From the NCBI GenBank assembly GCA_027081275.1, contig JALWKV010000152.1:6820-70819 (forward strand): a DNA stretch of 64,000 bases, read 5' to 3'. The position numbers and the translations under genes were made by a program. The notes below the pieces were generated by a model. That model searched no databases. It was not told the DNA's origin and worked only from the letters and a program-made list of their open reading frames with translations. Origin of the DNA: Gammaproteobacteria bacterium. Its GTDB lineage: Bacteria > Pseudomonadota > Gammaproteobacteria > UWMA-0217. How positions within the stretch are numbered: the stretch's first letter is position 1; the number at the start of each line of letters is the position of its first letter. Positions 11,975 to 62,410 of this stretch are shown here, one piece after another.

Positions 11975-11981
11975 CCAACCC

Positions 11982-12074
11982 TAGCCGGCATTTCTCACCA
12001 CCCTTCTTCTGCGACGTTCCAATGGCGCGCCCTTGATCCGTCTCGCTACGAACGCTGGTGAGAAATGCCGGCTA
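11982..12074. mobile_element. MITE-1 copy 1: internally deleted (~89 bp) with both terminal inverted repeats intact, flanked by TA
   Basis: TA|gccggcatttctcaccaccc…ggtgagaaatgccggc|TA. The ends match the full-length copies and ~90 bp of the centre is missing. It starts 8 nt after the iscX stop. Confidence 0.6.
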
Positions 12075-12134
12075 GCCGACGGTGCCGCGTTGCAGCCCGG
12101 GCTGCCTGCCAGTAGAATCCGCGAACCTTGCTAA

Positions 12135-20636: not shown

Positions 20637-20694
20637 TAACCCGGATTTCTCACCACCCTTCTACTGCGACGTTCCAATGGCGTGCCCTGGCTGG
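20637..20694. mobile_element. MITE-1 copy 2: truncated, one end only (~56 bp)
   Basis: TA|acccggatttctcaccacccttctactgcgacgttccaatggcgtgccctggctgg, then the similarity is lost. Confidence 0.45.
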
Positions 20695-37851: not shown

Positions 37852-37938
37852 CGTAACTACCCAGCGCCGCAGCCCGCTGCCGCGCGCCCATGCATGAAAG
37901 TAACGGCGTTACCACGAAGCACCGTTGCTGAACCCCTC
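37852..37938. repeat. Repeat family A copy A3 (5' part only; interrupted by MITE copy 3)
   Basis: ggcgtaactacccagcgcc…ggcgttaccacgaagcaccgttgctgaacccctc, then the MITE begins at the TA. Confidence 0.45.
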
Positions 37939-38120
37939 TAGCCCGAATTTCTCACCAACGTTCGTAGCGAGACGGCACAAGGGTGCGGCATGGGTGACTT
38001 TTGCGACCGAGGAGCGCGCAGGCATAGCCGGCACTATATCGAGCACTCCGACCAAGCGAAAGCCACCCAGGGCGTGCCATTGGGCCGTCGCAGTAGAAGG
38101 ATGGCGAGAAATGCGGGCTA
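37939..38120. mobile_element. MITE-1 copy 3 (full length, 178 bp plus TA flanks)
   Basis: TA|gcccgaatttctcaccaacgttcgtagcgagacgg…ccgtcgcagtagaaggatggcgagaaatgcgggc|TA. It has terminal inverted repeats and a long internal palindrome. Confidence 0.7.
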
Positions 38121-38134
38121 GATTCCCTTTGGAA

Positions 38135-38305
38135 GAGGTTGTCGCAAAAGTGATAACTTTGCGGCAACCTCACGCAGCACAAGGATGTGTTGCCAGAAAC
38201 AACGACAATAAGTCGTTATTTCTGTGAGAAAAGGAAAAATCGCACTTTTTCCTTTTCGTGTGTCGCAAAATCCTGGAGGGACTTTTGCGACACCTTCTGG
38301 AAGAG
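38135..38305. repeat. Repeat family B copy B1: array of four consecutive perfect hairpins
   Basis: The stems are ttgtcgcaaaagt/aactttgcggcaa, agaaacaacgac/gtcgttatttct, gaaaaggaaaaa/tttttccttttc and gtgtcgcaaaa/ttttgcgacac. It is ~90% identical to 58078-58250. Confidence 0.5.
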
Positions 38306-38496
38306 GGTATCGCAAAACGCTCTCCCACGAGGGAGAAGGCGTTGGGAGGCCGGTTCAAGCGCAGCTGAACCGGCAGCAGTGTTGCCACGAAGTCGCGCCG
38401 TTGCCCGATCCGCTACGGCTTGATCGGGCCTACTTCTTCTTGCGATAACCTCAAGGGGGAGGGGGCCATACCCTCTTTTCAGGCGGGTTGTCGCTG

Positions 38497-41057: not shown

Positions 41058-41262
41058 TAGTTACAGGGTAACTACTCAGCGCCCCGCCCGCTGCCGCGCC
41101 CCCATACATAGAAGTAGCGGCGTCACCACGAAGCACCGTTGCAATCCCCCTTTGGGGGCTGAGGCCTCCCTCTTGGCGAAGGGAGGTTTGGAGGGATGAA
41201 GGCTTCGGTGGTGGAGTCGGCAGTAGGTCTTGTCACGTATCGGTATTAAGTTACTTGGAAGC
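41058..41262. repeat. Repeat family A copy A2
   Basis: About 85% identical to 605-835. Confidence 0.5.
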
Positions 41263-46009: not shown

Positions 46010-46350
46010 CTTGTTGGCGGGTGGTGAACCCGAGGGTTAGCGGACCGGAGCTGATTGGCACCCCAAGAGGCAGCTTTTCCATTCATAGTTACCGATTCTT
46101 CTCCGCGTCCTCCGCGGCTCCGCTGAGCAAGCAAATCCTCGGTTCACACGGAGGCGCGGAGACGCGGAATCCGCACGGTTGTTTACGATACCCTTGTTTT
46201 CTGGATTCCAGGTTAGTGAACCAAAGTCGATTGGCAACCCAAGAGGCAGTTTTTCCATTCATAGTTACCGATCCTTCTCCGCGTCCTCCGCGGTTCCGCT
46301 GAGCAAGCAAATCCTCGGTTCACACGGAGGGGTCGGGACGCGGAAGAGGG
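46010..46350. repeat. Tandem repeat family D (~177-bp units, about 2.5 copies; a degenerate copy lies at ~46905-47030)
   Basis: ttggcaccccaagaggcagcttttccattcatagttaccgattcttctccgcgtcctccgcgg… recurs at 46054 and 46231. Each unit carries a ~14-bp imperfect stem. Confidence 0.5.
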
Positions 46351-46908
46351 GCGGTAGTTATTGACGATACGCTGAACGCCCTCTTTGAAGGTGGCTGCGC
46401 CGAAATTGATGAGTAGACCCACCGGAAGATTCATCAAACGAAGATAAGTGAGCACCTGCTTTGGGTGGACGGCAGTCATTTTTTCCACGGACTTTAATTC
46501 CACGATGATGCGGTTTTCCACCAACAGATCCAGGCGCCACCCTTCTTCAAAACGCATCCCGTCATATTCGAATGCCACGACCTTCTGTCTTTCGACTTTC
46601 AGGCCACGTCTAGCCCGCATTTCTCACCACCCTTCTACTGCGACGTTCCAATGGCACGCCCTGGCTGGCTTTCGCTCGGTCGGAGTGCTCGACATAGTGT
46701 CGGCTATGCCTGCGCGCTCCTCGGTCGCGAAAGCCACCCATGCCGCACCCTTGATCCGTCTCGCTACGGACGGTGGTGAGAAATGCGGGCTAGCCAAATC
46801 CCGGTAGAGTACAGCTTCATAGACAGACTCCAGAAGACCGGGGCCAAGGCCGGCATGCAGTCTGTAAGCCGTATCCACGATCATCCCGGTAATATCATCG
46901 ATTTCCAC
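46213..46908 (-). pseudogene. GxxExxY-family (PD-(D/E)XK-like) gene split by MITE-1 copy 4; the 3' end runs into the D repeats
   Basis: N-terminal piece MEIDDITGMIVDTAYRLHAGLGPGLLESVYEAVLYRDLA and C-terminal piece RRGLKVERQKVVAFEYDGMRFEEGWRLDLLVENRIIVELKSVEKM…LLINFGAATFKEGVQRIVNNY. Removing the 178-bp element and one TA restores a continuous frame …LYRDLARRGLKVERQ…. Confidence 0.7.
46611..46792. mobile_element. MITE-1 copy 4 (full length, opposite orientation), inserted in the GxxExxY gene
   Basis: TA|gcccgcatttctcaccacccttctactgcgacgttccaatgg…cggtggtgagaaatgcgggc|TA. Confidence 0.7.
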
Positions 46909-49762: not shown

Positions 49763-51454
49763 ATGCCCATGATGCTGGAATCCTCCGCGCTCCGACGCCT
49801 GTATCGGTGGCTGCGAACGCCGCTCGAATATCTGCTGTTCGCGCTGCTGCTGGCCTGGCTGAGCAAGCGTTTCTGGCGCGCCGACGGCCTGCCGCCGCTG
49901 TCGTGGCACTGGAGCCCGGAGTTGCCGCTGGCGCTCTATCTCTATTTTCTGCTCCGCAGTTTTCTGCCGCGCGGCCGTTACCGTGGCCTGCTGGCGGCCG
50001 TGCCGGTGGTGCTGATCTATCTTTTTCTCGATGTCTACTACCTGCTGCTCGGTCGCGTCTTTCGCCTCAGCGAGCTGCAGGAGGTGCCGGAGATGATCGA
50101 TGTGCTGCCGTGGTATCAGTCGCTGGGGATCGCGCTGGTGGTGGGACTGCCGCTGCTGCTGGTGGCATCGCGACTGCACTGGCCCGGATGGCGCCGGGCG
50201 GCGGTTGCGCTGGCGCCGCTGCTCTTGCTGGTGGCGGTGATCGCCTGGCGGCCGGGCTGGTTCCTGCGGGGTTTCGATGCCGTGGCGCGGCCGCCGGTGG
50301 TCTGGTCGGACTACTACTCCGTGGGCGCCAACGGGCGCATGACGATGGTGCTCTACCAGACGGCCCGCCGTCGGCAGGCGCTGCAATCGCTGGCCGGATA
50401 TCGTGATGACGCCGCCTATGAGGCCGGTTTCCAGCGGCGGCTGGCGCAGTTGCGGCGGATCGAGGCGCGGCGCAACGTCCATCTGCTGATGCTGGAGAGC
50501 TTCTTCGATCCCAAACGGCTGGAGAATGTCCGCTTCAGCCGCGACCCGCTGCATCCCGACTTTCGCCGTCTGCTGGCCGGCGGCGTCGGCGAATTGTCGC
50601 GCTCGCCGGTCTACGGCGGCTACACGGCGCAGGCCGAGTTCGAGGTGCTCTGCGGCGTGCCGGCGCGGCAGACCTTCGGCACGATCGAGTTCAATCTCTT
50701 CACCGGCGCGCGCATCCACTGCATGCCTGATGCGCTGGCGGCGATCGGCTATCGCACCGTGGCCACGGAGGGGTTCAAGCCGGAGTTCTTCAATGCCCGG
50801 GCGGCGCTGAAGGGCGTCGGATTCGACGAGATCCACTTCCCGCGCGAATACGCGCCGGCCGACAACAGCTACCTCTCCACCGGTGATGTCGAGGTCGAGC
50901 AGTACATGTTCGACGATGTACTGCTGCGGCAGAACCGGGCCTATATCGGCAGCCTGGAAGGGCCGGTGCTGAACTACGTCATGACCATCTACGGCCATCT
51001 TCCGTTCAAGCTGGACGAGACGCTGCGGCCGCGTCTGATCGAAGCCGCCGGCGGGCCGGTCAACGACGATCTGCTGACCATCGCCAACCAGATCTGGTAT
51101 CGCAGCAAGGCCGTTGCCGACCATATCGAGGCGCTGCGCAAGAACGATCCCGACAGCATCATCGTCGTGCTCGGCGACCATCTGCCGCCGATGCCGGAAG
51201 GGAAGGGAAAGTATGACGAGATGGGCTATCTGCCTGGCCATGAGCAGAGCAGCAAGCTGACGCTGCTGGCGGTGTTCGACCGCGGCCGGCAGGTACCGGT
51301 CGAGGCGTTCCACCACTACGATGTGCCGGCGCTGATCTATCGGCTGCTGCTCGACGGCGATTATTGCGAGACCGAGTCCTGCCGCCCGCGTTCGGAGGTG
51401 GAACTGCAACAAGACTACCGCCGCCTGATGGCGCACGCCGTCGGCAAGCCCTGA
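49763..51454 (+). CDS. LTA-synthase / sulfatase-family membrane protein (alkaline-phosphatase superfamily; OpgB-like phosphoglycerol-transferase candidate)
   Basis: N-terminal multi-TM region and a C-terminal sulfatase-like domain. Its TGA stop lies inside the first bases of MITE copy 5. Confidence 0.7.
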   Translation: MPMMLESSALRRLYRWLRTPLEYLLFALLLAWLSKRFWRADGLPPLSWHWSPELPLALYLYFLLRSFLPRGRYRGLLAAVPVVLIYLFLDVYYLLLGRVFRLSELQEVPEMIDVLPWYQSLGIALVVGLPLLLVASRLHWPGWRRAAVALAPLLLLVAVIAWRPGWFLRGFDAVARPPVVWSDYYSVGANGRMTMVLYQTARRRQALQSLAGYRDDAAYEAGFQRRLAQLRRIEARRNVHLLMLESFFDPKRLENVRFSRDPLHPDFRRLLAGGVGELSRSPVYGGYTAQAEFEVLCGVPARQTFGTIEFNLFTGARIHCMPDALAAIGYRTVATEGFKPEFFNARAALKGVGFDEIHFPREYAPADNSYLSTGDVEVEQYMFDDVLLRQNRAYIGSLEGPVLNYVMTIYGHLPFKLDETLRPRLIEAAGGPVNDDLLTIANQIWYRSKAVADHIEALRKNDPDSIIVVLGDHLPPMPEGKGKYDEMGYLPGHEQSSKLTLLAVFDRGRQVPVEAFHHYDVPALIYRLLLDGDYCETESCRPRSEVELQQDYRRLMAHAVGKP

Positions 51455-51625
51455 TCTCACCACAGTTCGTAGCGAGACGGATCAAGGGTGCGGCATGGGT
51501 GGTTTTCGCGACCGAGGAGCGCGCAGGCATAGCCGACACTATGTCGAGCACTCCGACCGAGCGAAAGCCAGCCAGGGCGCGCCATTGGAACGTCGCAGTA
51601 GGAGGGTGGTGAGCAATCCGGGCTA
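51446..51625. mobile_element. MITE-1 copy 5 (left end slightly diverged) wedged between two convergent genes
   Basis: aa|gccctgatctcaccacagttcgtagcgagacgg…ggtgagcaatccgggc|TA. The left end contains the TGA of the + gene. The right TA is part of the TAG of the - gene. Confidence 0.6.
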
Positions 51626-54277
51626 GTGACGGCTCGATGCCGTCGCGCCGATATCGGGCTTGCGATCTTCCGGCTTGCCGAGCGGAGCCATCGCGCCGAT
51701 GAGGCCGGCGGGAAGGCCGGGGAGACTGCTGATCAGGCTCATCGCCACCGATGCTGCGTAGGGGATCGCCTGCACCAGCAGCATCACCACCCAGATGCGG
51801 ATGTCCGGCATCGCGAAGCCGTGGACCATCCACAGGCCCCAGGCGCCGGTCAGCATGGCGATCAGCAGCAGCAGTTCTTCGCGAGCATGGTTGAGCGCCT
51901 GCAGAAAAGCCGAATGGCTGGCCATTTTCGGGGTGCGGAAAAAACCGAGCTTGCTGTTGGTAAAGCCCGTTATCACGGCGCGCGAGATGCCGTGGGCCAG
52001 CGCCAGCCCGGCGATGGCGGCGCCGATGCTCTGGCGCAGGTTGGCGCGCACCTTGAGCTGGTAGAGAAAGGTCAGTTTGATGATTTTGAAGGCGAACAGC
52101 GCCAGCGGAAACAGCGCGAACATCATCAGCGGCGGATCGAAGCGCTCGGGCAGCACGATCATGCCGACGGTCCAGGCCAGCGCGGTGAGGTTGATGATCA
52201 GGCTGAGGCCGTCTGAGACCCAGGGCAGCCAGCCGGCGATGAAATGATAGCGCTGACCGCGCGTCAGTTGCGTCGGCTTCAGTCCCGTCAGTTCGCCGAA
52301 GTGGCGGCGCATGATCATCATCGCGCCATAGGCCCAGCGGAAACGCTGCTTCTTGAAGTCGAGAAAGTTGTCCGGAATCAGTCCGCGACCATAACTGACG
52401 GGAACGTACTGCGCCTTGTAGCCGTGCTCGAACACGCGCAGCCCCAGCTCGGCATCCTCGGTGATGCACCATTCGCTCCAGCCGCCGACCTCCTGCAGCA
52501 CCGACTTGCGGATCATCGTCATCGTGCCGTGCTGGATGATGGCGTTGCGTTCGTTGCGTGTCACCATGCCGATCTGGAAGAAGCCGCGATACTCGGCGTG
52601 GCACATGGCCTTGAACAGGTTTTCGCCGCCGTCGCGATAGTCCTGCGGCGCCTGCATGATCGCCAGTTCCGGATCGTCGGCGAAGGCCGCCGCCAGATCC
52701 CTGAGCCAGTCGCGCTCGACAATGTAGTCGCTGTCGATCACGGCGACGACGCTGGCGCGCGGGTCGGTCTGCGCCAGCGCCACGTTCATGGCGCCGGCCT
52801 TGAAGCCCGCCAGCTTTTCGTAGTGGAAGAAGCGGAAGCGCGGCCCGAGCTTTTCACAGTGGTCGCGCACCGGCTGCCACAGTGCCGGATCGGTGGTGTT
52901 GTTGTCGATCAGCACCACCTCGAAGCGGGGGTAGTCGAGCGCCGCCAGCGCGTTCAGCGTCTGCTTCAGCATCTCGGGCGGCTCGCTGTAGGCCGGGATG
53001 TGCACCGAGACGAAGGGCAGCGCATCGTCGGCGAGCCGTGGCGGCGCGTAGGCGCGGCGCGTCTTGCCGATCCACAGCGCCTCGGCCCACTCGTGGGCTT
53101 CGGCCAGCAGCACCATGATCAGCCCCAGCACCGCCAGCAGCATGACCAGGCCGAGCACGATGCTGCTCCAGGTCAGGTATTGCGCGGTATAGCGGTAGAT
53201 GAGCCAGACCGTGGCCGTGACGGCGGCAAAGGTAACGATGGCGAGAAAGCCGCGACCGACCGAATTGAGGTTGTGGTCGCTGCGCAGCATCGGCCCGAGC
53301 ACCAGCACGGCGAAAACGACCGAGATCGCGGCCAACAGCCGCCACTGTGGAATCTCGACCACCGGCGCGGTGAACGAGAACTTGGGATTGCGCTCAACGT
53401 CGTAGAGCCCCCAGTAGGCGCCGGCGCCGCCTTCCGTTTTGGTCTTCCATGGCTGGTCGAAGGCTTCGATGATGAAGTAGTCCCAGCCCTCGTTCTCCGC
53501 CAGCGCGAGGAAGCGCTTGAGAAACATCGCCTCGTTGCTCAGTGACGGCACCGCGCCCTCGCGCTGACGCCCGTTGCTGGGCCAGCCCACCTCGCCGATG
53601 ACGATCGGCTTGCCCGGATAGGCGGCCTGCAGCTCGCGATAGCGTTGCAGCAGATAGGGCACGGCGGCGTCGGCCGGCAGCCCCTCCCAATAGGGCAGCA
53701 GGTGGACGGCGATGAAATCGACGCGCTGGACCAGCTCGGGATGCTTCAGCCAGATGTGCCACGGTTCCGCCGTGCTCACCGGCATCGGCAGCGAGCGGCG
53801 CACGCGGTCCAGATAGGTCGCCAGCCGGTCGACAGTCAGCGTATTCGTCAGTAGCGTCTCGTTGCCGATGATGACGCGGTCGACCGTGTCCCAGTTCTCG
53901 CGCGCCGCGCCGATCAGCCGCTTCAGCTCCACCGTGTCCTCGGAGACATTGCCGGTCAGATGGGCGCCTAGCGTCACCTTCATGCCGTGCGCCTTGGCCA
54001 GACGCGGGATCTGCACCAGATCGGCCTTGACGGTATAGGTGCGGATGTTCTCGACCTCCCCGTTCAGCAAGGCGAGATCCTCGTCGATCTGCGCGGTGGT
54101 GGGATAGCGGTTCTTCGCCGGGTCATGCTCGGCGCGCAGAGGCGAGAAGGAAACGCCCTGCAGCGTATGCGGCCAGGCGGGATCGTTGTCGCCCGGGTGG
54201 TTGAACGCTGCCCAACCGAGAACCGTCAAGGTCGCAACGATGAGATAGAGCAACAGATTAGATAAGGGGATCTTCAC
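51623..54277 (-). CDS. ndvB: NdvB-like fusion protein: N-terminal GH17-like glycoside hydrolase/transglycosylase plus C-terminal GT2 processive glycosyltransferase (candidate cyclic beta-1,3-glucan synthase). GTG at 54277 or TTG at 54298.
   Basis: N-terminal TM anchor, a GH17-like domain (…VIIGNETLL…IGEVGWPSNG…), multiple TM helices, and GT2 motifs IDSDY (DxD) and QRFRWAYG (QxxRW). This is the same architecture as P. aeruginosa NdvB. Confidence 0.7.
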   Translation of the reverse strand: MKIPLSNLLLYLIVATLTVLGWAAFNHPGDNDPAWPHTLQGVSFSPLRAEHDPAKNRYPTTAQIDEDLALLNGEVENIRTYTVKADLVQIPRLAKAHGMKVTLGAHLTGNVSEDTVELKRLIGAARENWDTVDRVIIGNETLLTNTLTVDRLATYLDRVRRSLPMPVSTAEPWHIWLKHPELVQRVDFIAVHLLPYWEGLPADAAVPYLLQRYRELQAAYPGKPIVIGEVGWPSNGRQREGAVPSLSNEAMFLKRFLALAENEGWDYFIIEAFDQPWKTKTEGGAGAYWGLYDVERNPKFSFTAPVVEIPQWRLLAAISVVFAVLVLGPMLRSDHNLNSVGRGFLAIVTFAAVTATVWLIYRYTAQYLTWSSIVLGLVMLLAVLGLIMVLLAEAHEWAEALWIGKTRRAYAPPRLADDALPFVSVHIPAYSEPPEMLKQTLNALAALDYPRFEVVLIDNNTTDPALWQPVRDHCEKLGPRFRFFHYEKLAGFKAGAMNVALAQTDPRASVVAVIDSDYIVERDWLRDLAAAFADDPELAIMQAPQDYRDGGENLFKAMCHAEYRGFFQIGMVTRNERNAIIQHGTMTMIRKSVLQEVGGWSEWCITEDAELGLRVFEHGYKAQYVPVSYGRGLIPDNFLDFKKQRFRWAYGAMMIMRRHFGELTGLKPTQLTRGQRYHFIAGWLPWVSDGLSLIINLTALAWTVGMIVLPERFDPPLMMFALFPLALFAFKIIKLTFLYQLKVRANLRQSIGAAIAGLALAHGISRAVITGFTNSKLGFFRTPKMASHSAFLQALNHAREELLLLIAMLTGAWGLWMVHGFAMPDIRIWVVMLLVQAIPYAASVAMSLISSLPGLPAGLIGAMAPLGKPEDRKPDIGATASSRH

Positions 54278-55145
54278 GGGTTCCCGATGGCATGCCAATG
54301 AGGAGGGTCGAAGATTCTATCGCGTCCGTGGGATCGAAACGTCGAAGGTTTCACAGCGACCGCTTTGATTTCAGTTGTTTACAACTGAAGGTGTCTCGAG
54401 CCGCTTCCTCGGACGGGATGTCGTGCATTCGACCCGAAAGCCACTGCGGAAAACCGTGAACCATTGTCAGCGCCATCATAACGCATGCGGTTCCGGTGAT
54501 TGAACCCGTCGGATGATACTCGGGAAGGTGGAGAGAAGTGCGGAGGGGTTTTTAAGAGGCCCAAAAATAAAGCTGACGCCGAAGCGCCAGCTCAGGTCCA
54601 GCCCCCACTGGAATACAAGGACCGGGTCAAAACGAACATGTCGTCAATAGGGACGACCGTTTCCGGCAACGCACTCAGCCAGCACTCTGCAACCAACCCC
54701 CGTTGTTACACAATGCTGATACGCCACCGGCCTGACTGATGTCGTCCCGGTGTGTGGATGCCGCCCTGGCGGGAGGCCCCCGTCCGGCCGTTCTTGTTCG
54801 ACCCGGTAAAATGGCAGAAGAACGGATGAACGACCTTCTGCAGCCACGGCATTGATGACCCAACCGCCATGACTGGGGATAATTTAACAAGCGATGACAA
54901 TGGTTACAGTAACCCGTGACAACTAGTCGAAATGTTTCAATAATAGAAGCCGTGTCTACAGCGCTGATGTAACGTGTTGAAAGAACGGTGGATATCCGTT
55001 ACCCGACTAGGGTTCTCCCGGATGGGTGGGATTAGCCCCAATGGGCTAGTTTGCCCATAGGGGTGCTGGTGCTGGACATGTGTGGCCTTATGATATCGCT
55101 GCGGTGCAACGGCGCTGTTCTTGCGGGGTTGCGATTGGGCGGGGG

Positions 55146-55817
55146 ATGACATTGAGATTTCTGGTAGCCGATGATCACGAACTGATACGCGAGGGATTGA
55201 GCGCCCAGTTGCGGACGATCAATCCCGACGCGCAAGTCGTCTCCGCGGCGAGTCTCGACGAGATGTGGGACGAGGTCGAGCGCGAAGGCGCGGTCGACCT
55301 GCTGCTGCTGGATCTCGGCATGCCCGGCGGCGACGGCATGTCGGCGCTGGCGCGGCTCTGCAACCGCTATCCGGAGATGCCGGTCGCCGTTGTCTCCGCC
55401 TCCGAGGATCGCGCCACGATCGAAAAGGCCATCGACCACGGCGCGGCAGGGTACATTCCCAAGTCAATGGCGATGAACGTCATGGTGAACGCCATCCGCC
55501 TCATCCTGTCGGGGGGCGTCTACCTGCCGGAAACGCTGTTGCGCGGCAAGGGCGATGCTCCCACGAAGCCCGATGACGCTTCCCGCGGTGACGAACGGAT
55601 CACGCCCGAGTCGCTGACCCAGCGTCAGATCGACGTGCTCTGCCTGATGTGCGAAGGTCTCTCCAACAAGGAGATCGCCCGTCGGCTCGGCATATCCCCC
55701 CACACAGTCAAGATCCATGTCGCGGCGGTATTGAAAGGGTTGCATGCAGACAACCGAACGCAGGCCACGCGCCTTGCGGACAAGTACGGCCTGTGCTCAG
55801 GGCGCGGCTCGGCATAG
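55146..55817 (+). CDS. NarL/FixJ-family (LuxR-type HTH) response regulator
   Basis: REC domain (…VADDHELIREG…DLGMPGGDG…) with a C-terminal LuxR HTH (…EGLSNKEIARRLGISPHTVKIHV…). Confidence 0.85.
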   Translation: MTLRFLVADDHELIREGLSAQLRTINPDAQVVSAASLDEMWDEVEREGAVDLLLLDLGMPGGDGMSALARLCNRYPEMPVAVVSASEDRATIEKAIDHGAAGYIPKSMAMNVMVNAIRLILSGGVYLPETLLRGKGDAPTKPDDASRGDERITPESLTQRQIDVLCLMCEGLSNKEIARRLGISPHTVKIHVAAVLKGLHADNRTQATRLADKYGLCSGRGSA

Positions 55818-55927
55818 GAGTCTGTCCAGCCGGATTCGCCCCCTGTGGTTTTCGCTTCAAACAACCTGGTCGGACCGCCCTGGGCAACAGGGTGGCGTGA
55901 CGCACCTCCCCACTACGGACAGAAGAA

Positions 55928-58078
55928 ATGATCGAGAACTCCATGGAGAGTCAATCACGGGCAGCGGCGGCAAGCGGTGGCGTGTTTCACCGCAGCTGCT
56001 GCCGCCCGCTCGCCGGCAAGCCACGCATTGGCGCCGCGCTCGGCGCGCTGCTGGCCGGTTTCGGTGGCGTGGTGGATGCCGCTGAAATGGCCACCGACGG
56101 CGAGGAAGCCTTCCTCGCCGACATCCCCATCGTCATGTCGGCCACGAGGCTGCCGCAGCCGCTGCTGGAATCGCCGGTCTCGACCACGGTCATCACCCGC
56201 GAGATGATCGAGGATTCCGGCTTCAACCAGCTTGCCGACGTATTCCGGCTCGTGCCCGGCTTTCAGGTCGCCCACGCCACCGGCGGACACTTCGTCGTCG
56301 CCTACCATGGCCAGGAATTCACGCTGGCCTCCCGGCTCGAGGTGCTGATCGACGGCCGTTCCGTCTACGGCAACATCCTCTCCAGCGTGCAGTGGAACAC
56401 GCTGGGCGTCGCGCTGGAGGACATCGAGCGGATCGAGGTGATCCGCGGGCCGAACGCGCCGGTGTTCGGCGCCAACGCCATGGTGGCCACCATCAATATC
56501 ATCACCCGACAGCCCTACGCCGAGTCGGGAACCTGGATCGACGCCACCGCCGGCTCGATCGGCACCCGCGACCTGCTGCTGCGCCATGCCGCAACCGCCG
56601 GCGCGCTGGATTACCGCCTCAGCCTGGGCTGGAAGCAGAATGACGGCTTCGACGTGGCCCCTGGAATGGGGCCGGATTTCGACGATACGCGTCTTGGCAG
56701 CCTCACCTTTCGCGGCGCCTGGTCGCCCTCCAGCATCGACGATGTCGATATCCAGTTCGGCTACACCGGCGGCGAATCCGCGACGCTGGAGCCGAAGCCC
56801 GATGCATTGCAGACCGACCACGATGGCGATGCCAGATCCCATTACCAGTTCATCCGCTGGACGCGGTCGCGGTCGATGGATGATGAACTCCACCTGCAGT
56901 TCTATCACAACTACAACGACCAGCACGATGGTTCCGAGCTGGGGCCGATTTCGGCGTATATCGGCATATTGCCGGCACAGGTGCCCCTTGCCATCGGCGG
57001 CCGGCCGGATCAGTCGATCGCGGTCTACTACGGCGAGGGGACCTCGGAGCGCTACGATCTCGAATTGCAGCGGCGTCTGCGCATGTCCGATTCCCTGCGG
57101 ATGGTCTGGGGCACGGGATTCCGCCTCGACCGGCTGCGCAGCAAGCCGCATCTGAACCGGGACGGCTTCGTCGACAACCCGTCGGCGCGGATGTTCGGCA
57201 ACGCGGAGTGGTCGCTGAGCGACGACCTCTCCCTCCACCTCGGCGCCATGGTGGAGCACAACGACGTGGCGGGGCCGTTCGGCTCGGCGCGAATCGCCGC
57301 CAACTGGCGCCTCGCGCGCGATCAGGCGGTGCGTGCCAGCATCAGCTCGACCCAGCGCAGTCCGTCGATCATTGAACAGGAGTGGGACTTCCTGCTGCGC
57401 TTCAATGACGGCGCGCCGCTGAACCAGATCTTCTACTCGCCCGGCGATCTCGATCCGGAACGGCTCGTGGCCGTGGAGCTCGGCTACGCCTACATCCCGG
57501 TGGACGGACATCTGCAGTTCGATGCCAAGGTCTTTCGCGAGCGGGCGACCGACATCATCTCCAACTACCGCGATCTCGATTTTCCCGACCCGTTTCTCCA
57601 GGATGGCGTCGAGATCAACATGAATGACGACAGCTATCGCGTCAGCGGCGTGGAGGGCGCGCTGCGCTGGCGGTCGGGGCCACACGACCTGCTCACGTTC
57701 CAGTATTCGCTGACGAAAAGCCACCGTGATCTCTACCGCGGCGGCGATGATGAACCAATACGCATCGAGCACACCGCCACGCCCCGGCGGACATGCAGCC
57801 TGCTGTACACGCACCATTTTCCCGCCGATGTCAGCGCCAGCCTCGGTTACTACTACCGTTCCGCCGTCAAGTGGATCGGCGATGGCGACAAGACGGACGG
57901 CCACAAACGAGTCGATCTGCGGATCGGGAAAACATTCTCGAGCAAGCGGCTGGAGGGCAATATCGACCTGATCGTGCAGAACATCGGGGAGGACTATCAG
58001 GAATACATCAGCGAAAAAGAGAAACGAACGACGTTCAAGACGCGCTATTTCGTCAGGGCCGGCCTCCATTTCCAGTAG
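55928..58078 (+). CDS. TonB-dependent receptor (plug plus 22-strand barrel)
   Basis: Signal-like N-terminus, a plug motif region, and a C-terminal …RAGLHFQ with terminal aromatic residues. Confidence 0.85.
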   Translation: MIENSMESQSRAAAASGGVFHRSCCRPLAGKPRIGAALGALLAGFGGVVDAAEMATDGEEAFLADIPIVMSATRLPQPLLESPVSTTVITREMIEDSGFNQLADVFRLVPGFQVAHATGGHFVVAYHGQEFTLASRLEVLIDGRSVYGNILSSVQWNTLGVALEDIERIEVIRGPNAPVFGANAMVATINIITRQPYAESGTWIDATAGSIGTRDLLLRHAATAGALDYRLSLGWKQNDGFDVAPGMGPDFDDTRLGSLTFRGAWSPSSIDDVDIQFGYTGGESATLEPKPDALQTDHDGDARSHYQFIRWTRSRSMDDELHLQFYHNYNDQHDGSELGPISAYIGILPAQVPLAIGGRPDQSIAVYYGEGTSERYDLELQRRLRMSDSLRMVWGTGFRLDRLRSKPHLNRDGFVDNPSARMFGNAEWSLSDDLSLHLGAMVEHNDVAGPFGSARIAANWRLARDQAVRASISSTQRSPSIIEQEWDFLLRFNDGAPLNQIFYSPGDLDPERLVAVELGYAYIPVDGHLQFDAKVFRERATDIISNYRDLDFPDPFLQDGVEINMNDDSYRVSGVEGALRWRSGPHDLLTFQYSLTKSHRDLYRGGDDEPIRIEHTATPRRTCSLLYTHHFPADVSASLGYYYRSAVKWIGDGDKTDGHKRVDLRIGKTFSSKRLEGNIDLIVQNIGEDYQEYISEKEKRTTFKTRYFVRAGLHFQ

Positions 58079-58250
58079 AGGTTGCCGCAAGAGCGATTAC
58101 TTTGCGACACCCTCGCGCAGCACAAGGATGTGCTGCCAGAAACAACGACGACAAGTCGTTGTTTCTGTGAGAAAAGGAAAAATCGCACTTTTTCCTTTTC
58201 GTGTGTCGCAAAGTCCTGGACGGACTTTTGCGACACCCTCCAGTAAAGGG
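58078..58250. repeat. Repeat family B copy B2 (array of four hairpins), beginning at the TonB-dependent receptor stop codon
   Basis: gaggttgccgcaagagcgattactttgcgacacc…agaaacaacgacgacaagtcgttgtttct…gaaaaggaaaaatcgcactttttccttttc…gtgtcgcaaagtcctggacggacttttgcgacac. Confidence 0.5.
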
Positions 58251-58280
58251 CGGCAACTGGCGCGACTCGAACCGGTCGAC

Positions 58281-58462
58281 TAGCCCGGATTTCTCACCAC
58301 CGTTCGTAGCGAGACGGATCAAGGGTGCGGCATGGGTGGCTTTCGCGACCGAGGAGCGCGCAGGCATAGCCGACACTATGTCGAGCACTCCGACCGAGCG
58401 AAAGCCAGCCAGGGCGTGCCATTGGGACGTCGCAGTAGAAGGGTGGTGAGAAATCCGGGCTA
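58281..58462. mobile_element. MITE-1 copy 6 (full length)
   Basis: TA|gcccggatttctcaccaccgttcgtagcgagacgg…ggtggtgagaaatccgggc|TA. Confidence 0.7.
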
Positions 58463-58719
58463 GTGGTAAAGACAATATATCAATAGTTGCAAGAGTAGCT
58501 GCGTTCCTGGCGGTGCATATAAATGCATCTTTGGACCAGAGGGTGCGTTCTACGTACCGTCTGGGCCTGCGGGAATATCTGCAACCCCTATATCAACATG
58601 GGACGCATGCGTACGTGTATCGCGGACCGCATATTGAAAGTGGTGGGACTGATGAGCAGTACAGGGAAGCAGGAAGACATACCGGATAGCGCAATCGACA
58701 TGAAATCCTAGAGACGCGC

Positions 58720-59709
58720 GTGTTTCTTCGGCGCCACATCGTAGGCTGTTCGCGGCTGGCCGCCTTGCTGCTGGCCGTATTGCTGCTGACTGCGCCGGCG
58801 GTGGTCGTGGCGGGGCGTGCCGAGGCGGATATCTATGTCGTGCTGAGCAACGATACGGAGGAATACCGGCAGATCGAAAAGCGGATCGTCGAAGGCCTGC
58901 GGGACTCCCGTCACTACGGTAAGCGACTGCGCACGATGCTGGCGGCGTCGCTGGACCCGTCGCGTCCGGGTCACTGGCCGGCGGCGGACGCCGAGGTCGT
59001 CGTCGCCGTCGGCATGCGCGCGCTGAAGGCGCTGCTCGAAGGGCCGCCCGGTTTCCCGATCTATGCCGTGTTCGTGCCCTACGCCAGCTACCATGCGCTG
59101 TTGGATGAGTCGGCGTCCGGGGCCGGGGCACCGCGCCGGCGGCATCTTTCCGTGCTCTATCTCGATCAGCCGCCGCGGCGACAGCTGGAGCTGGCGGCGA
59201 CCATCGACCGATCCTTTCGCCGGCTCGGCATCCTGCTGTCGGAGGATTCGCCGATCGATGTCGCTGCGCTGCGGGAGGCGGCGGCGGATCTCGGTCTGAC
59301 GCTGCGGCCGGTGCGCGTGTCCGAGCGCCGGGACGTGGTGCCGGCGCTCAAGCGCGTCCAGCGCCGGATCGATCTGCTGATCACGGTTTTCGATCCGGCC
59401 ATCATCAGCACGCAGTCACTGCGGCAGATTCTCTATTTCTCCTACAACCGGCGTCTGCCGGTCATCGGCTATTCACGGGCGATGGTTCGCGCCGGCGCCT
59501 TGGCCGCGGTCTACTCCGATGCCGGACAGGTGGGCAGGCAGGCGGCGGAGACGCTGATCGAGGCGCTGGACCGCAGCCCGATCGGCCTGCCGCCGAGCGC
59601 ATTCCCCGACTATTTCAGCGCCAGCTGCAACGAGGCCGTGCGCGCCTACTTCAACCTTCCTGCCGACTGCAATCTGGAGGGCTTGGCGCGCGGCGGGGAA
59701 GGGCGCTGA
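58720..59709 (+). CDS. Periplasmic PF04392/COG2984-type ABC-substrate-binding-like protein (putative ligand-binding partner of the downstream kinase). GTG start.
   Basis: Signal peptide and an SBP-like fold (…IYVVLSND…LLITVFDPAII…VIGYSRAMVRAGALAAVYSD…). Its stop lies 1 nt before the kinase ATG. Confidence 0.65.
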   Translation: MFLRRHIVGCSRLAALLLAVLLLTAPAVVVAGRAEADIYVVLSNDTEEYRQIEKRIVEGLRDSRHYGKRLRTMLAASLDPSRPGHWPAADAEVVVAVGMRALKALLEGPPGFPIYAVFVPYASYHALLDESASGAGAPRRRHLSVLYLDQPPRRQLELAATIDRSFRRLGILLSEDSPIDVAALREAAADLGLTLRPVRVSERRDVVPALKRVQRRIDLLITVFDPAIISTQSLRQILYFSYNRRLPVIGYSRAMVRAGALAAVYSDAGQVGRQAAETLIEALDRSPIGLPPSAFPDYFSASCNEAVRAYFNLPADCNLEGLARGGEGR

Positions 59710-59710
59710 G

Positions 59711-62410
59711 ATGAAGAGCCGCATCCGTTTCCAGCACAACTGGGGCATCCGCCGGCGGGTGCTGTTCCTGGCGGTGGTGCCGATGGTGCTGGTCTCGATC
59801 ATGATCGGTTTCTACCTCACCAAGGCGCATATCGACTACATGCGCCGGACGATGGACGAGCATGGCCATGAAATCGCACGGAATCTCGGGTTCGCCGCCG
59901 AGTTCAGCCTGCTGATCGACGATCGCGAACGGCTGCAGCAGATCGTCGATCGCGCCTTCTTCGGCCCCGAGATCGACGCGGTCATGATTCTCGACCGTCA
60001 CGGTGACGTGGTGGCGAGGCGGGTGCGTGAGGGGGTCGACGCATTCCTGGAGGGGGGCGGCGAGCGCCGCCCAATGGAAGTCTATTCTTTCGACGTGATC
60101 TCCACGGCCTCGGGAACGGGGGAGAGCGAGGAGCTGCGCGCCGCCGGCGAGAGCCGCCGTTTCGGTCGCGTGCTCGTCTATCTTTCGCGTGATCATCTGG
60201 CCAGCGCAGCGGGGGAGGTCGTCGTTCGCAGCACGCTGTTCATTCTCTTTGGCCTGCTGTTCGCGTCGCTGCTGGCGCTGCTGCTGGCGCGGGAGCTGCT
60301 GGCGCCGATCCAGCGCATCATCGATCTCGTGGGGCGGGTGCAGCGGGGCGATCTTTCGTCGCGCCTGGCGCGCAGGAGCGGCGCCGAGCTGGGCGAGCTG
60401 GAGCAGGGCATCAACAGCATGGTGCGGACCATCGAAAACTCCCAGCAGGATCTCGAAGCGCGCGTCGCCGAGGCCACCGCCGCGCTGCAGAAGACCGTGG
60501 CCGAGCTGCGCGAGAAGGGGGCGGCGCTGGAGGCCTCGCGGCGCGAGGCGGTCGAGGCGGGGCAGGCGCGGGAGCGCTTTCTGGCGCTGGTCAGCCACGA
60601 GTTGCGTACCCAGCTCAACGCCATCGTCGGCTTCGCCGAGCTGCTGGAGAAGGCGCCGGAGGCGCGCCAGAGCCACGAGTATGTACAGATCATCCACAGC
60701 GCCAGTCAGCAACTGCTGGCGATCATCGACGACGTGCTCAGCTATTCCGGCCTCAATGCCGGCACGCTCCAGGTAGAGCAAAAGCCGTTCAGTCCCGAGC
60801 CGGTGCTGGAGGATGTCGTCTCGCTGCTCAGTCGCGACGCCCACCGCAAGGGGCTGGAACTGGTGCTGATGATCCACCGCGACACGCCGCGCTGCGTCGT
60901 CGGCGATCCGGTGCGCTTCAGCCAGGTGGTGACCAACCTGCTGATCAACGCCATCAAGTTTACCGACAGCGGCGAGATCATCGTCGTCTCCGAATCGGTG
61001 GATGATGGCCACGGCGGGCGTCAGCTGCTGGTCTCGGTGGACGACTCCGGCATCGGCATCCGCGACGGCATTCGCGACTCGCTGTTCGAGCCCTTCGTGC
61101 AGGGCGACAGCTCGATCCAGAAGCGTTTCGGCGGCACCGGGCTCGGGCTGTCCATCTCCCGTTCGCTGATGGAGAAAATGGGGGGACGGATCTGGCTCGA
61201 CGAAAGCACGCTGGGCGGCAGCCGTTTCTGTCTGGTGCTGGCGACGGCGGATGTCGAGGCGGTCGATGCCGACGATGGCCTGCGCAACGCGCTGGTCGGC
61301 CACAAGGCGCTGGTGGCCGACAGCCACGCCGTCTCCCGGCGCGCGATCAAGAACACCCTGCTGCATTTCGGCATGCAGGTCTTCCTGCAGCCGCGTGGCC
61401 GCTCGCTGGAGGCGGTGATTCGCGAGGCGGCAGACGCCGGCGGGCCCTTCGACGTGCTCGTCGTCGGCGGCAAGGCAGACGAATTTCCGCGCGCGCGAAT
61501 GCGGCAGTTGCAGCGGCTCGCCGCCGATACCGGCGTTCGCATCGTCGTGCTGATCAGCGACGAGGACCAGATCCGGGACAAGTGCGAAATGGTCGAGGCG
61601 GGCGTCTGCCTCACCGTATCGACCAAGCCGATTCGCCGCCATCGCCTGCTGGAGAACCTGCGTCAGGTGCTCGATTGCGGCGTGGCGACGCCGCCCGAAC
61701 CGACGCCGGAGGCGCCGGCCGAGACCGACACGGGCGCGATGCCCGGCATCACCGCACTGATCGCCGACGACAACGAGTTCTCGCGGCAGCTGCTGCAGAT
61801 CAGTCTGGCGCGTCACGGCGTTGCTGTCGAGGCCAGCGAGGACGGCTTCGAGCTGCTGGAGAAGGCGCGGCAGAGGCAGTACGACATCATCTTTCTCGAC
61901 ATCAACATGCCGGCGATGGACGGGCTGTCGGTAGCGCGCCTGATCCGCGAGGAGACCGTCAACAATCTCACGCCGCTGGTCGCCGTCACCGCCGACCTCT
62001 ACACCTCGGAGGCGAAGTCGACGCGCCAGGCGCTGTTCGACGCGACGCTGTTCAAGCCGGTCAAGCCCGATGAGGTCGGCGCCGTCGTCGACAGCCTGCT
62101 TGAGCGCCGCGCGGCGCCATCGGCGGATGACGCCGATGCGCGGGAGGACGACAACCTCTGGACCCAGGCGCGCTTTTCCGCCGCGCTCGACGAGCAGCTC
62201 GAGCTGCTGCGGCAGGCGGCGCGGGACGGCGACCGGGAGCGGTTGCGGCAGGTGGCCCACCAGATCAACGGCCTGACCGGCTACTTCGGCCACGAGACCC
62301 TGTCGCGGCAGGGCCGGCTGCTGGAAGTGCAGGCGCTGACGGCCAGCGACGACGAACTCGCCGAGCTGATCGCCGCCTTGCGCGAGGCGGCCGCATCGGC
62401 CGTGTCGTAA
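59711..62410 (+). CDS. Unorthodox hybrid sensor histidine kinase (TM1, ~150-aa periplasmic segment, TM2, HAMP, HisKA, HATPase, pseudo-receiver, REC, HPt)
   Basis: H-box SHELRTQLNAI, an N/G1/G2 HATPase region, a receiver with DDNEF…DINMPAMDG…K, and a C-terminal HPt motif HQINGLTGYFG. Confidence 0.85.
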   Translation: MKSRIRFQHNWGIRRRVLFLAVVPMVLVSIMIGFYLTKAHIDYMRRTMDEHGHEIARNLGFAAEFSLLIDDRERLQQIVDRAFFGPEIDAVMILDRHGDVVARRVREGVDAFLEGGGERRPMEVYSFDVISTASGTGESEELRAAGESRRFGRVLVYLSRDHLASAAGEVVVRSTLFILFGLLFASLLALLLARELLAPIQRIIDLVGRVQRGDLSSRLARRSGAELGELEQGINSMVRTIENSQQDLEARVAEATAALQKTVAELREKGAALEASRREAVEAGQARERFLALVSHELRTQLNAIVGFAELLEKAPEARQSHEYVQIIHSASQQLLAIIDDVLSYSGLNAGTLQVEQKPFSPEPVLEDVVSLLSRDAHRKGLELVLMIHRDTPRCVVGDPVRFSQVVTNLLINAIKFTDSGEIIVVSESVDDGHGGRQLLVSVDDSGIGIRDGIRDSLFEPFVQGDSSIQKRFGGTGLGLSISRSLMEKMGGRIWLDESTLGGSRFCLVLATADVEAVDADDGLRNALVGHKALVADSHAVSRRAIKNTLLHFGMQVFLQPRGRSLEAVIREAADAGGPFDVLVVGGKADEFPRARMRQLQRLAADTGVRIVVLISDEDQIRDKCEMVEAGVCLTVSTKPIRRHRLLENLRQVLDCGVATPPEPTPEAPAETDTGAMPGITALIADDNEFSRQLLQISLARHGVAVEASEDGFELLEKARQRQYDIIFLDINMPAMDGLSVARLIREETVNNLTPLVAVTADLYTSEAKSTRQALFDATLFKPVKPDEVGAVVDSLLERRAAPSADDADAREDDNLWTQARFSAALDEQLELLRQAARDGDRERLRQVAHQINGLTGYFGHETLSRQGRLLEVQALTASDDELAELIAALREAAASAVS

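Follow-up and report, generated by a model that had tools for sequence, protein, structure and literature searches.

The window analyzed here is a 64,000-nucleotide (nt) stretch of gammaproteobacterial DNA (assembly GCA_027081275.1, contig JALWKV010000152.1, positions 6,820 to 70,819), which carries at 55146–62410 a module of four genes, all on the + strand. In order, they encode a NarL/FixJ-type response regulator with a receiver (REC) domain and a GerE helix-turn-helix (55146–55817, identified by Pfam), a TonB-dependent outer-membrane receptor of 716 residues (55928–58078, Pfam), a secreted, two-lobed binding protein of the PF04392 type with 329 residues (58720–59709, Pfam, profile and fold model), and an unorthodox hybrid histidine kinase of 899 residues with GacS/BarA-type architecture (59711–62410, Pfam and motifs). 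According to the open reading frame (ORF) list, Pfam and motif reading, all four genes are intact and full length and have kept their catalytic residues. Chance cannot plausibly account for the arrangement, which recurs in more than 90 loci. The interpretation that we favor, with a probability of roughly 0.6, is that the binding protein is a co-receptor of the kinase and that the receptor controls ligand entry, so that a three-part input is joined to a phosphorelay.

In this model, a scarce or bulky ligand would cross the outer membrane via the TonB-dependent receptor and would be captured in the periplasm by the PF04392-type protein, in the cleft between its two lobes. Rather than feeding an ABC transporter, the binding protein would dock on the kinase's detector domain, which is GacS-like and of the sCache_4 type. 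The signal would run through the HAMP domain and alter autophosphorylation of H296, and the phosphoryl group would travel from H296 via D730 and H850 to D56 of the adjacent NarL-type regulator, changing transcription. The phosphorelay is proposed because its motifs are intact and because unorthodox kinases are known to behave in this way; ligand import, ligand binding, contact between binding protein and kinase, the direction of regulation and the target genes are steps that we infer from sequence.

The four proteins of the module

The binding-protein and kinase genes are tightly coupled. The TGA stop codon of the former (59707–59709) is separated by one base from the kinase ATG at 59711, and in relatives the binding-protein and sensor genes overlap by 1–4 nt or are separated by a 4-nt gap. 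The co-orientation of the four genes, this one-nucleotide spacing and the lack of an adjoining ABC permease or ATPase all agree with the initial annotation, which had been made from the letters of this DNA; in a motif scan of every ORF of the window, none contained both a Walker A and an ABC signature motif.

Assignment of the binding protein to PF04392, likewise proposed earlier, was upheld by Pfam score, profile and fold. The protein matches the Pfam family (ABC_sub_bind) with 40.1 bits against a cut-off of 25.9, the match being confined to residues 167–283, and a profile of its own family finds the solved PF04392 proteins 3lkv (E 3.6e-27) and 3lft (E 5.7e-23). An AlphaFold2 (AF2) model based on 28 homologues shows a two-lobed type I fold (predicted local distance difference test, pLDDT, 91.4; predicted template modeling score, pTM, 0.84). 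Its top Foldseek matches are 3lft, 3lkv, 6hni and 6hnj (E 5e-15 to 2.5e-13, TM-score <=0.71), and it is nearest to the open form 6hnj of C. difficile CD0873; LuxP is found among the distant matches, at ranks 42 and 48. The signal peptide that the initial annotation had called for was read from the sequence at residues ~1–36 (ending …AGRAEA, followed by D), with R4, R5 and R12 preceding a hydrophobic core at 13–30 and A-E-A at 34–36, and N-terminal hydrophobic segments are present throughout the family alignment.

Within PF04392, identity of the protein to transporter-type members is 15–17%, and its score against the TrpX equivalog (35 bits, cut-off 390) is below threshold. An exhaustive profile search recovered a subfamily of 3,332 clusters (50% identity) at E <= 1e-30. 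Because the 150th best cluster scores 292 bits as opposed to 98 bits for 3lkv, the subfamily is, by profile score, large and distinct from the transporter type; the cluster names of 10 of its representatives are exclusively those of metagenomes and metagenome-assembled genomes (MAGs).

Conservation was counted in an alignment of 166 members of the family, most of them representing clusters at 50% identity. Three residues, G98, G259 and N304, do not vary, and R154, Q150, S252, D225 and D149 are conserved at 92–99%. All of these residues are located on loops after beta strands, the place where type I binding proteins hold their ligands. The cleft motif VRAGA(L) corresponds to VEVGG(L) in 3lft and to VERGA(I) in 3lkv, and both structures have an alanine at the position of S252. 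The solved members of PF04392 bind Trp, Tyr or Phe. As a further clue to the ligand, a riboswitch was sought in an Rfam scan of 54000–59000 at E <= 1, which returned a single chance-level match. Two cysteines, C303 and C317 (59626–59628 and 59668–59670), are kept in 8 of 8 members of the close gammaproteobacterial clade and are absent from the rest of the family; they may form a clade-specific disulfide.

The N-terminal lobe has diverged so far that it lies outside the Pfam match, and a homologue from Massilia matches no Pfam family. Such features would be expected if the protein bound no small ligand and instead were a periplasmic accessory regulator of the kinase that signals the condition of the envelope, with the receptor as an outer-membrane anchor or stress sensor. 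Control of periplasmic sensors by partner proteins is common, as in YfiR–YfiN, CpxP–CpxA and ExoR–ExoS. However, the polar residues D149, Q150, R154, D225, S252 and N304 are kept at type I ligand positions, the full two-lobed fold is retained in the model, and an energy-dependent import channel is conserved alongside the protein in nearly every locus, all of which make a ligand-free regulator quite unlikely.

In the kinase, HAMP, HisKA, HATPase_c, Response_reg and Hpt all exceed their Pfam cut-offs, confirming the domains first proposed. Hydrophobic helices at residues ~17–39 and ~170–192 flank a periplasmic segment of ~130 residues (~40–169), instead of the ~150 given by the initial annotation. 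This segment is the detector domain (59828–60217), which is sCache_4/GacS-like by family-level profile. It is followed by the HAMP domain (60281–60436, Pfam), by the catalytic core of HisKA (286–350) and HATPase_c (398–510) at 60566–61240, by a degenerate receiver-like domain, or pseudo-receiver (61310–61660), by the receiver domain with D730 (61757–62083) and by the histidine phosphotransfer (HPt) domain with H850 (62174–62389); core, receiver and HPt domain were assigned by Pfam and motifs. The catalytic residues are H296, an N-box at 409, G1 at 445, G2 at 474, D730 and H850. The pseudo-receiver (residues ~534–650), also listed in the initial annotation, is a plausible assignment: it is receiver-like over positions 2–110 of the 111-position Response_reg profile and has a glycine in place of the phospho-accepting aspartate, but the similarity is sub-threshold (Pfam Response_reg E 0.012; CheY 3h1f E 0.055).

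The detector domain of the window kinase scores 15.5 bits with sCache_4 (E 0.015), below the cut-off of 22.1, whereas relatives rise above it (22.7 bits in L003 and 41.4 bits in L012). When ten sensor N-termini drawn from different clades were combined in a profile, it matched the solved periplasmic domain of GacS from P. aeruginosa (5o7j) with an E-value of 1.2e-14. Homology to the GacS detector domain is therefore supported at the level of the family profile. No Pfam match to the LuxQ-periplasm domain was found in the kinase or in the relatives scanned.

The homologous detector, together with the shared architecture, which includes a degenerate receiver ahead of the true one, could mean that the kinase is simply the GacS/BarA orthologue of this organism, a global regulator with incidental neighbors. 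BarA (NF008318) is indeed its best NCBIfam match at 458.8 bits, followed by LetS (357.7 bits, cut-off 1650). Yet the BarA score is about half of the equivalog cut-off of 890, and the scores for TorS (TIGR02956, 305 bits, cut-off 676.5) and LuxQ (NF041947, 232.6 bits, cut-off 1200) are below threshold as well. The neighbors are conserved across classes and are thus not incidental, and homologous detector domains are found on GGDEF proteins and short kinases, which are never GacS orthologues. The adjacent regulator scores best with ErdR (148 bits) and NarL (112 bits), ahead of the UvrY/GacA model NF007018 (81 bits, cut-off 280), all far under their cut-offs. Because the regulator adjoins the kinase and falls so far short of UvrY/GacA, the kinase is by these scores a GacS/BarA paralogue that shares their overall architecture, and orthology is very unlikely.

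The regulator itself matches Response_reg (5.9e-24) and GerE (2.7e-18), with the acidic pair D9/D10 and the phospho-acceptor D56 read from its sequence, and homologues of it flank the module in 56 loci. The receptor contains a Plug domain (residues 79–185, 1.3e-18) and a TonB_dep_Rec_b-barrel domain (residues 252–685, 1.2e-25). Its signal peptide ends in …GFGGVVDA, followed by AE and a TonB-box-like segment, DIPIVMSATR, that is kept in relatives; it has no N-terminal signaling extension. The best NCBIfam match of the receptor, to the TOL_0244 family (NF053590, 207.8 bits against a cut-off of 645), is below threshold, and TOL_0244 is the top family for five of the seven partner receptors tested, yet none of them exceeds 210 bits.

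A conserved input with interchangeable outputs

Every locus was scored with hidden Markov models (HMMs) built from seed proteins. A sensor with a homologous N-terminus is encoded directly downstream of the binding-protein gene in all 93 testable loci, and 91 of 92 loci have a receptor gene immediately upstream of it (90 by HMM, with L016 added by blastn), which confirms the conserved receptor/binding-protein/kinase neighborhood on which the earlier proposal depended. ORFs with ABC ATPase motifs occur in 2 of ~97 loci, and the window is not one of these. An apparent disruption of the receptor gene in L016 was rejected; the break is a scaffold gap of 100 N, and the receptor gene was recovered there by blastn.

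The same four genes are present in metagenome contigs and gammaproteobacterial MAGs (L001, L003, L007–L010 and L016), three of L007–L010 being titled uncultured Thiotrichales. Rhodoferax ferrireducens (L005) has receptor, binding protein and an sCache_4 hybrid kinase, with a convergent LuxR-type regulator, and a metagenome contig (L013) has receptor, binding protein and an unorthodox kinase. In a Rhodocyclaceae MAG (L011), receptor and binding protein are followed by an sCache_4-HAMP-GGDEF-EAL protein, and on another metagenome contig (L012) a binding protein precedes an sCache_4-HAMP-GGDEF protein and there is no receptor. The mobilizable plasmid of Massilia sp. WG5 (L015; NZ_CP012641.2, 3033–9242), the source of the homologue that matches no Pfam family, encodes a regulator, a CPBP protease, a receptor, a binding protein and a HAMP-HisKA_3 kinase; the gene for the CPBP intramembrane protease sits between those of the regulator and the receptor. 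The weakest match (L097, 28% identity) has receptor, binding protein and a HAMP-PAS kinase.

The input formed by receptor, binding protein and sCache_4-HAMP is thus joined to an unorthodox kinase (window, L001, L003 and L013), a hybrid kinase (L005 and 80 metagenome loci), a HisKA_3 kinase (L015), a GGDEF-EAL protein (L011) or a GGDEF protein (L012). As far as these sequences go, the input is invariant and the output variable. The last two loci also bear out the initial annotation's remark that PF04392 proteins pair with kinases or GGDEF proteins. A more distant case is found at 2906–6942 of L098, where the gene of a PF04392-like protein, P0092, overlaps the end of a gene for a Ser/Thr protein kinase fused to an FGE-sulfatase domain, which suggests another kind of signaling partner for this group of binding proteins.

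The taxa that carry the module comprise gammaproteobacterial MAGs labeled uncultured Thiotrichales, Rhodoferax, Rhodocyclaceae and Burkholderiales MAGs, and Massilia plasmids. In a search of plasmids, two Massilia plasmids alone carried the unit, and two further family members used as queries gave none. A scan of the genome collection with the binding-protein alignment of the close clade returned four MAG loci, and the spread among cultured genomes is poorly sampled by it. A second homologue search with the binding-protein profile yielded mostly one Burkholderiales-like clade among the matches listed, and a search with the sensor N-terminal profile gave 7 uninformative matches, swamped by HAMP words.

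A simpler explanation for the adjacency would be that the kinase senses its ligand directly via sCache_4 and that receptor and binding protein are uptake genes of its regulon, with the inner-membrane transporter encoded elsewhere. Two-component systems are familiar beside the receptor genes that they control, such as PfeSR–PfeA and PirSR–PirA, and PF04392 is otherwise a family of ABC substrate-binding proteins. The GacS-type domain has a PDC fold, which is a fold capable of binding small molecules itself (PMC5595915). The same adjacency, however, is found with GGDEF and GGDEF-EAL partners, which have no DNA-binding output (L011 and L012); a regulator encoded beside its regulon therefore cannot explain it. 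In addition, in every clade the binding-protein gene either overlaps the sensor gene or almost abuts it, ~95 of 97 loci lack a nearby permease or ATPase, and members of the subfamily score more than 290 bits, far from the transporter type. Taken together, these observations make the uptake-regulon explanation unlikely.

The co-receptor reading, by analogy, fits the tight coupling, the lack of transporter genes and the precedents of LuxPQ, TorTS, LytS/XylFII, HptSA and VirA/ChvE, in which kinases depending on binding proteins are established (PMC8050422). Several points weigh against it. The 80 metagenome loci form one Burkholderiales-like clade, so that the counts overstate independence, and the real weight of evidence is about ten independent lineages and five output architectures. 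No strict requirement for the receptor exists, given that L012 has no gene for it. In L011 and L014, heme-type receptor models give the receptors higher scores than TOL_0244 does; the receptor partner is therefore, on these scores, not one tight orthologous group. Contact between binding protein and kinase would follow from comparative evidence only, the conserved polar residues are predicted to surround the cleft from secondary-structure position only, and in the window itself a structured spacer of 641 nt may cause the receptor to be expressed separately from its two downstream partners.

Repeats and other non-coding features of the locus

The spacer between receptor and binding-protein genes occupies 641 nt (58079–58719) in the window, compared with 0–180 nt in relatives. 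The initial annotation had described mobile elements inserted between the genes of the module. This is correct for the receptor/binding-protein spacer; the other two of the three intergenic spacers are free of repeats. The first element, repeat B2 (58077–58250, + strand), is a 174-nt multi-hairpin repeat that starts at the receptor stop codon, as had been noted, and overlaps its last two bases. Its one other copy in the window, at 38134–38307, is 90% identical. The second, identified by repeat comparison, is copy 6 of a miniature inverted-repeat transposable element (MITE; 58280–58463, + strand), 184 nt in length, whose 27-nt terminal inverted repeats are 96% complementary and which is 97.8% identical to 46610–46793 in the opposite orientation. 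Five copies of the MITE are located elsewhere in the window (11978–12083, 20637–20694, 37938–38121, 46610–46793 and 51443–51626). The copy at 11978–12083 is an internally deleted version of ~106 nt, and that at 51443–51626 fills the gap between a sulfatase-family gene and a GH17/GT2 gene.

That both repeats are insertions, as the initial annotation had supposed, is borne out by an empty site in L016, a metagenomic relative with 91% DNA identity across the module. In the blastn alignment, L016 has 78 nt in place of the window's 540 nt (58079–58618). Because so close a relative lacks both elements, the insertions are, by this comparison, recent and lineage specific; the two of them widened the spacer from ~180 nt to 641 nt. 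The alignment resumes at 58619 with the native ~100-nt leader of the binding-protein gene (58619–58719, + strand), which is conserved with L016 and is the likely place of a putative internal promoter or regulatory site. RNA of the two inserts has a predicted fold of -219.7 kcal/mol (z = -13.8), in which MITE copy 6 forms one long hairpin. No terminator-like site was found on the + strand within the spacer. The insertions may nevertheless decouple transcription of the receptor gene from that of the downstream genes.

Taken further, the insertions might mark a module in decay, in which B2 and the MITE have severed the receptor from its two downstream partners and the unit has ceased to function as a whole. 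The unusual length of the spacer and the strength of the predicted fold are in keeping with decay, as is the C-terminus of the receptor (58064–58078), …GLHFQ, where a glutamine follows the usual terminal aromatic residue; the receptor of L001 ends in F and that of L003 in Y. Against it, all four ORFs retain their full length and their catalytic residues, the spacer has no terminator-like site on the + strand, and the native leader is retained. L016 has no insertions and has the same F-Q end, and the repeat is therefore not the cause of this ending. We give decay of the module very little credence.

Both copies of repeat B adjoin a MITE copy, with the order reversed: MITE-B at 38 kb (37938–38307) and B-MITE at 58 kb (58077–58463). 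The reversal suggests that one of the two elements inserts preferentially at the other and that no composite was duplicated. Further repeat families in the window include a 149-nt tandem-like pair at 46035–46359, and 75-nt and 68-nt repeats common to 606–798, 37853–37927 and 41067–41239. No tRNA genes were found in the window. According to Pfam, the neighbors of the module are a GH17/GT2 glucan-synthase-like gene, a Na/H exchanger gene and a Usp gene.

The 850-nt spacer upstream of the regulator gene contains a conserved non-coding element of ~325 nt on the minus strand (54554–54877), which ends in an intrinsic terminator formed by a stem at 54570–54593 and a T-run. The element is ~80% identical at the nucleotide level in L001 and L007 and block-conserved in L010, in loci whose binding proteins are 47–61% identical. 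RNAalifold predicts 93 pairs in it, 13 of them with compensatory changes, and it has no Rfam match. In nhmmer searches it was found only in loci with a GH17/GT2 gene downstream on the same strand and a divergent regulator gene. It may be a leader or attenuator of the GH17/GT2 gene; alternatively, it may be a small RNA under the regulator's control. Between this element and the regulator gene lies a perfect palindrome, GGTTAC-A-GTAACC (54902–54914), which is flanked by direct TTGTCA(C/T) repeats and adjoins a promoter-like site at 54916–54944 (+ strand); it could be a candidate binding site of the LuxR-type regulator.

Relation to known systems and significance

Like LuxP/LuxQ and TorT/TorS, the module has a gene for a secreted type I binding protein directly upstream of that for a membrane-anchored hybrid kinase, with no transporter, and TorS and LuxQ are among the NCBIfam matches of the window kinase. 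Unlike them, it includes an outer-membrane TonB-dependent receptor, its binding protein belongs to PF04392 instead of Peripla_BP_4 or Peripla_BP_1, and its detector is sCache_4 instead of the LuxQ-periplasm domain or the helical sensor of TorS. The kinase has the domain order of GacS, BarA and LetS (sCache_4, HAMP, HisKA, HATPase, degenerate receiver, REC, HPt), but, unlike in GacS and BarA, its regulator is encoded beside it and is not of the UvrY/GacA type. No constant pairing with receptor and binding-protein genes is known for gacS or barA, whereas the module kinase always has it.

In PfeS/PfeR–PfeA and PirS/PirR–PirA of Pseudomonas and in the SusC/D hybrid systems of Bacteroides, the sensors themselves bind a ligand imported by the receptor. 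The module resembles these systems in that a ligand would enter through a receptor and be detected in the periplasm by a sensor encoded beside the receptor gene. It differs from them in the separate binding protein interposed between the two, and the protein families are unrelated. Most likely, judging by these analogies, the module combines sensing of the LuxPQ/TorTS type with receptor-gated entry of the PfeSR–PfeA or Bacteroides hybrid type.

The ABC proteins of PF04392, among them TrpX, 3LFT of S. pneumoniae, VC_1101 of V. cholerae (3LKV) and CD0873 of C. difficile, share the Pfam family and the fold of the module's binding protein, from which they differ in the low identity given above, in the cleft motifs and in the nearby permease or ATPase genes that the module lacks. 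In NspS–MbaA and ScrB–ScrC of Vibrio, which are treated in part in a review of binding-protein signaling (PMC8050422), a periplasmic binding protein controls a GGDEF-EAL enzyme of cyclic diguanylate (c-di-GMP) metabolism. L011 and L012 likewise have a binding protein beside a c-di-GMP enzyme; the binding-protein families and sensor domains are different, however, and the Vibrio systems have no receptor gene.

PA1613–PA1612–PA1611 of P. aeruginosa is a possible member of the family. PA1611, a hybrid kinase, has a PAS/Cache-like domain in the periplasm (residues 38–169; PMC8694187), acts in the GacS/RetS network (PMC5595915) and forms an operon with PA1612 (PMC3462791). PA1613 has been analyzed among iron-acquisition proteins (PMC9864456), and PA1612 is not placed under PF04392 in the supplement of PMC9602780. 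If these genes are a member, then published work covers the kinase side of the family and not its input.

Sensing through binding proteins, as in LuxPQ and TorTS, and detection of receptor-imported ligands, as in PfeSR and the Bacteroides hybrids, are each already known. Full-text literature searches found no published description of an association of receptor, PF04392 protein and sensor, and a 2021 review of binding-protein signaling mentions neither TonB nor PF04392 (PMC8050422); a fixed three-part input unit uniting both principles appears in neither. New here are the GacS-homologous detector, the joining of one input to kinase, GGDEF and GGDEF-EAL outputs, and the subfamily of ~3,300 clusters.

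More generally, and more tentatively, the trio of receptor, PF04392-like protein and sCache_4-HAMP sensor might be a widespread outer-membrane-to-cytoplasm input cassette that has been attached repeatedly to kinases and c-di-GMP enzymes, its cleft suggesting one ligand class across thousands of lineages; we consider this broader proposal possible, if somewhat short of probable. Were the ligand identified, many orphan sensors would gain a signal in one step, and there would be a tractable relative of the GacS detector, a domain for which the signal has been elusive for decades. If the proposal is true, GacS-type detector domains can work via a partner protein instead of binding their signal directly.

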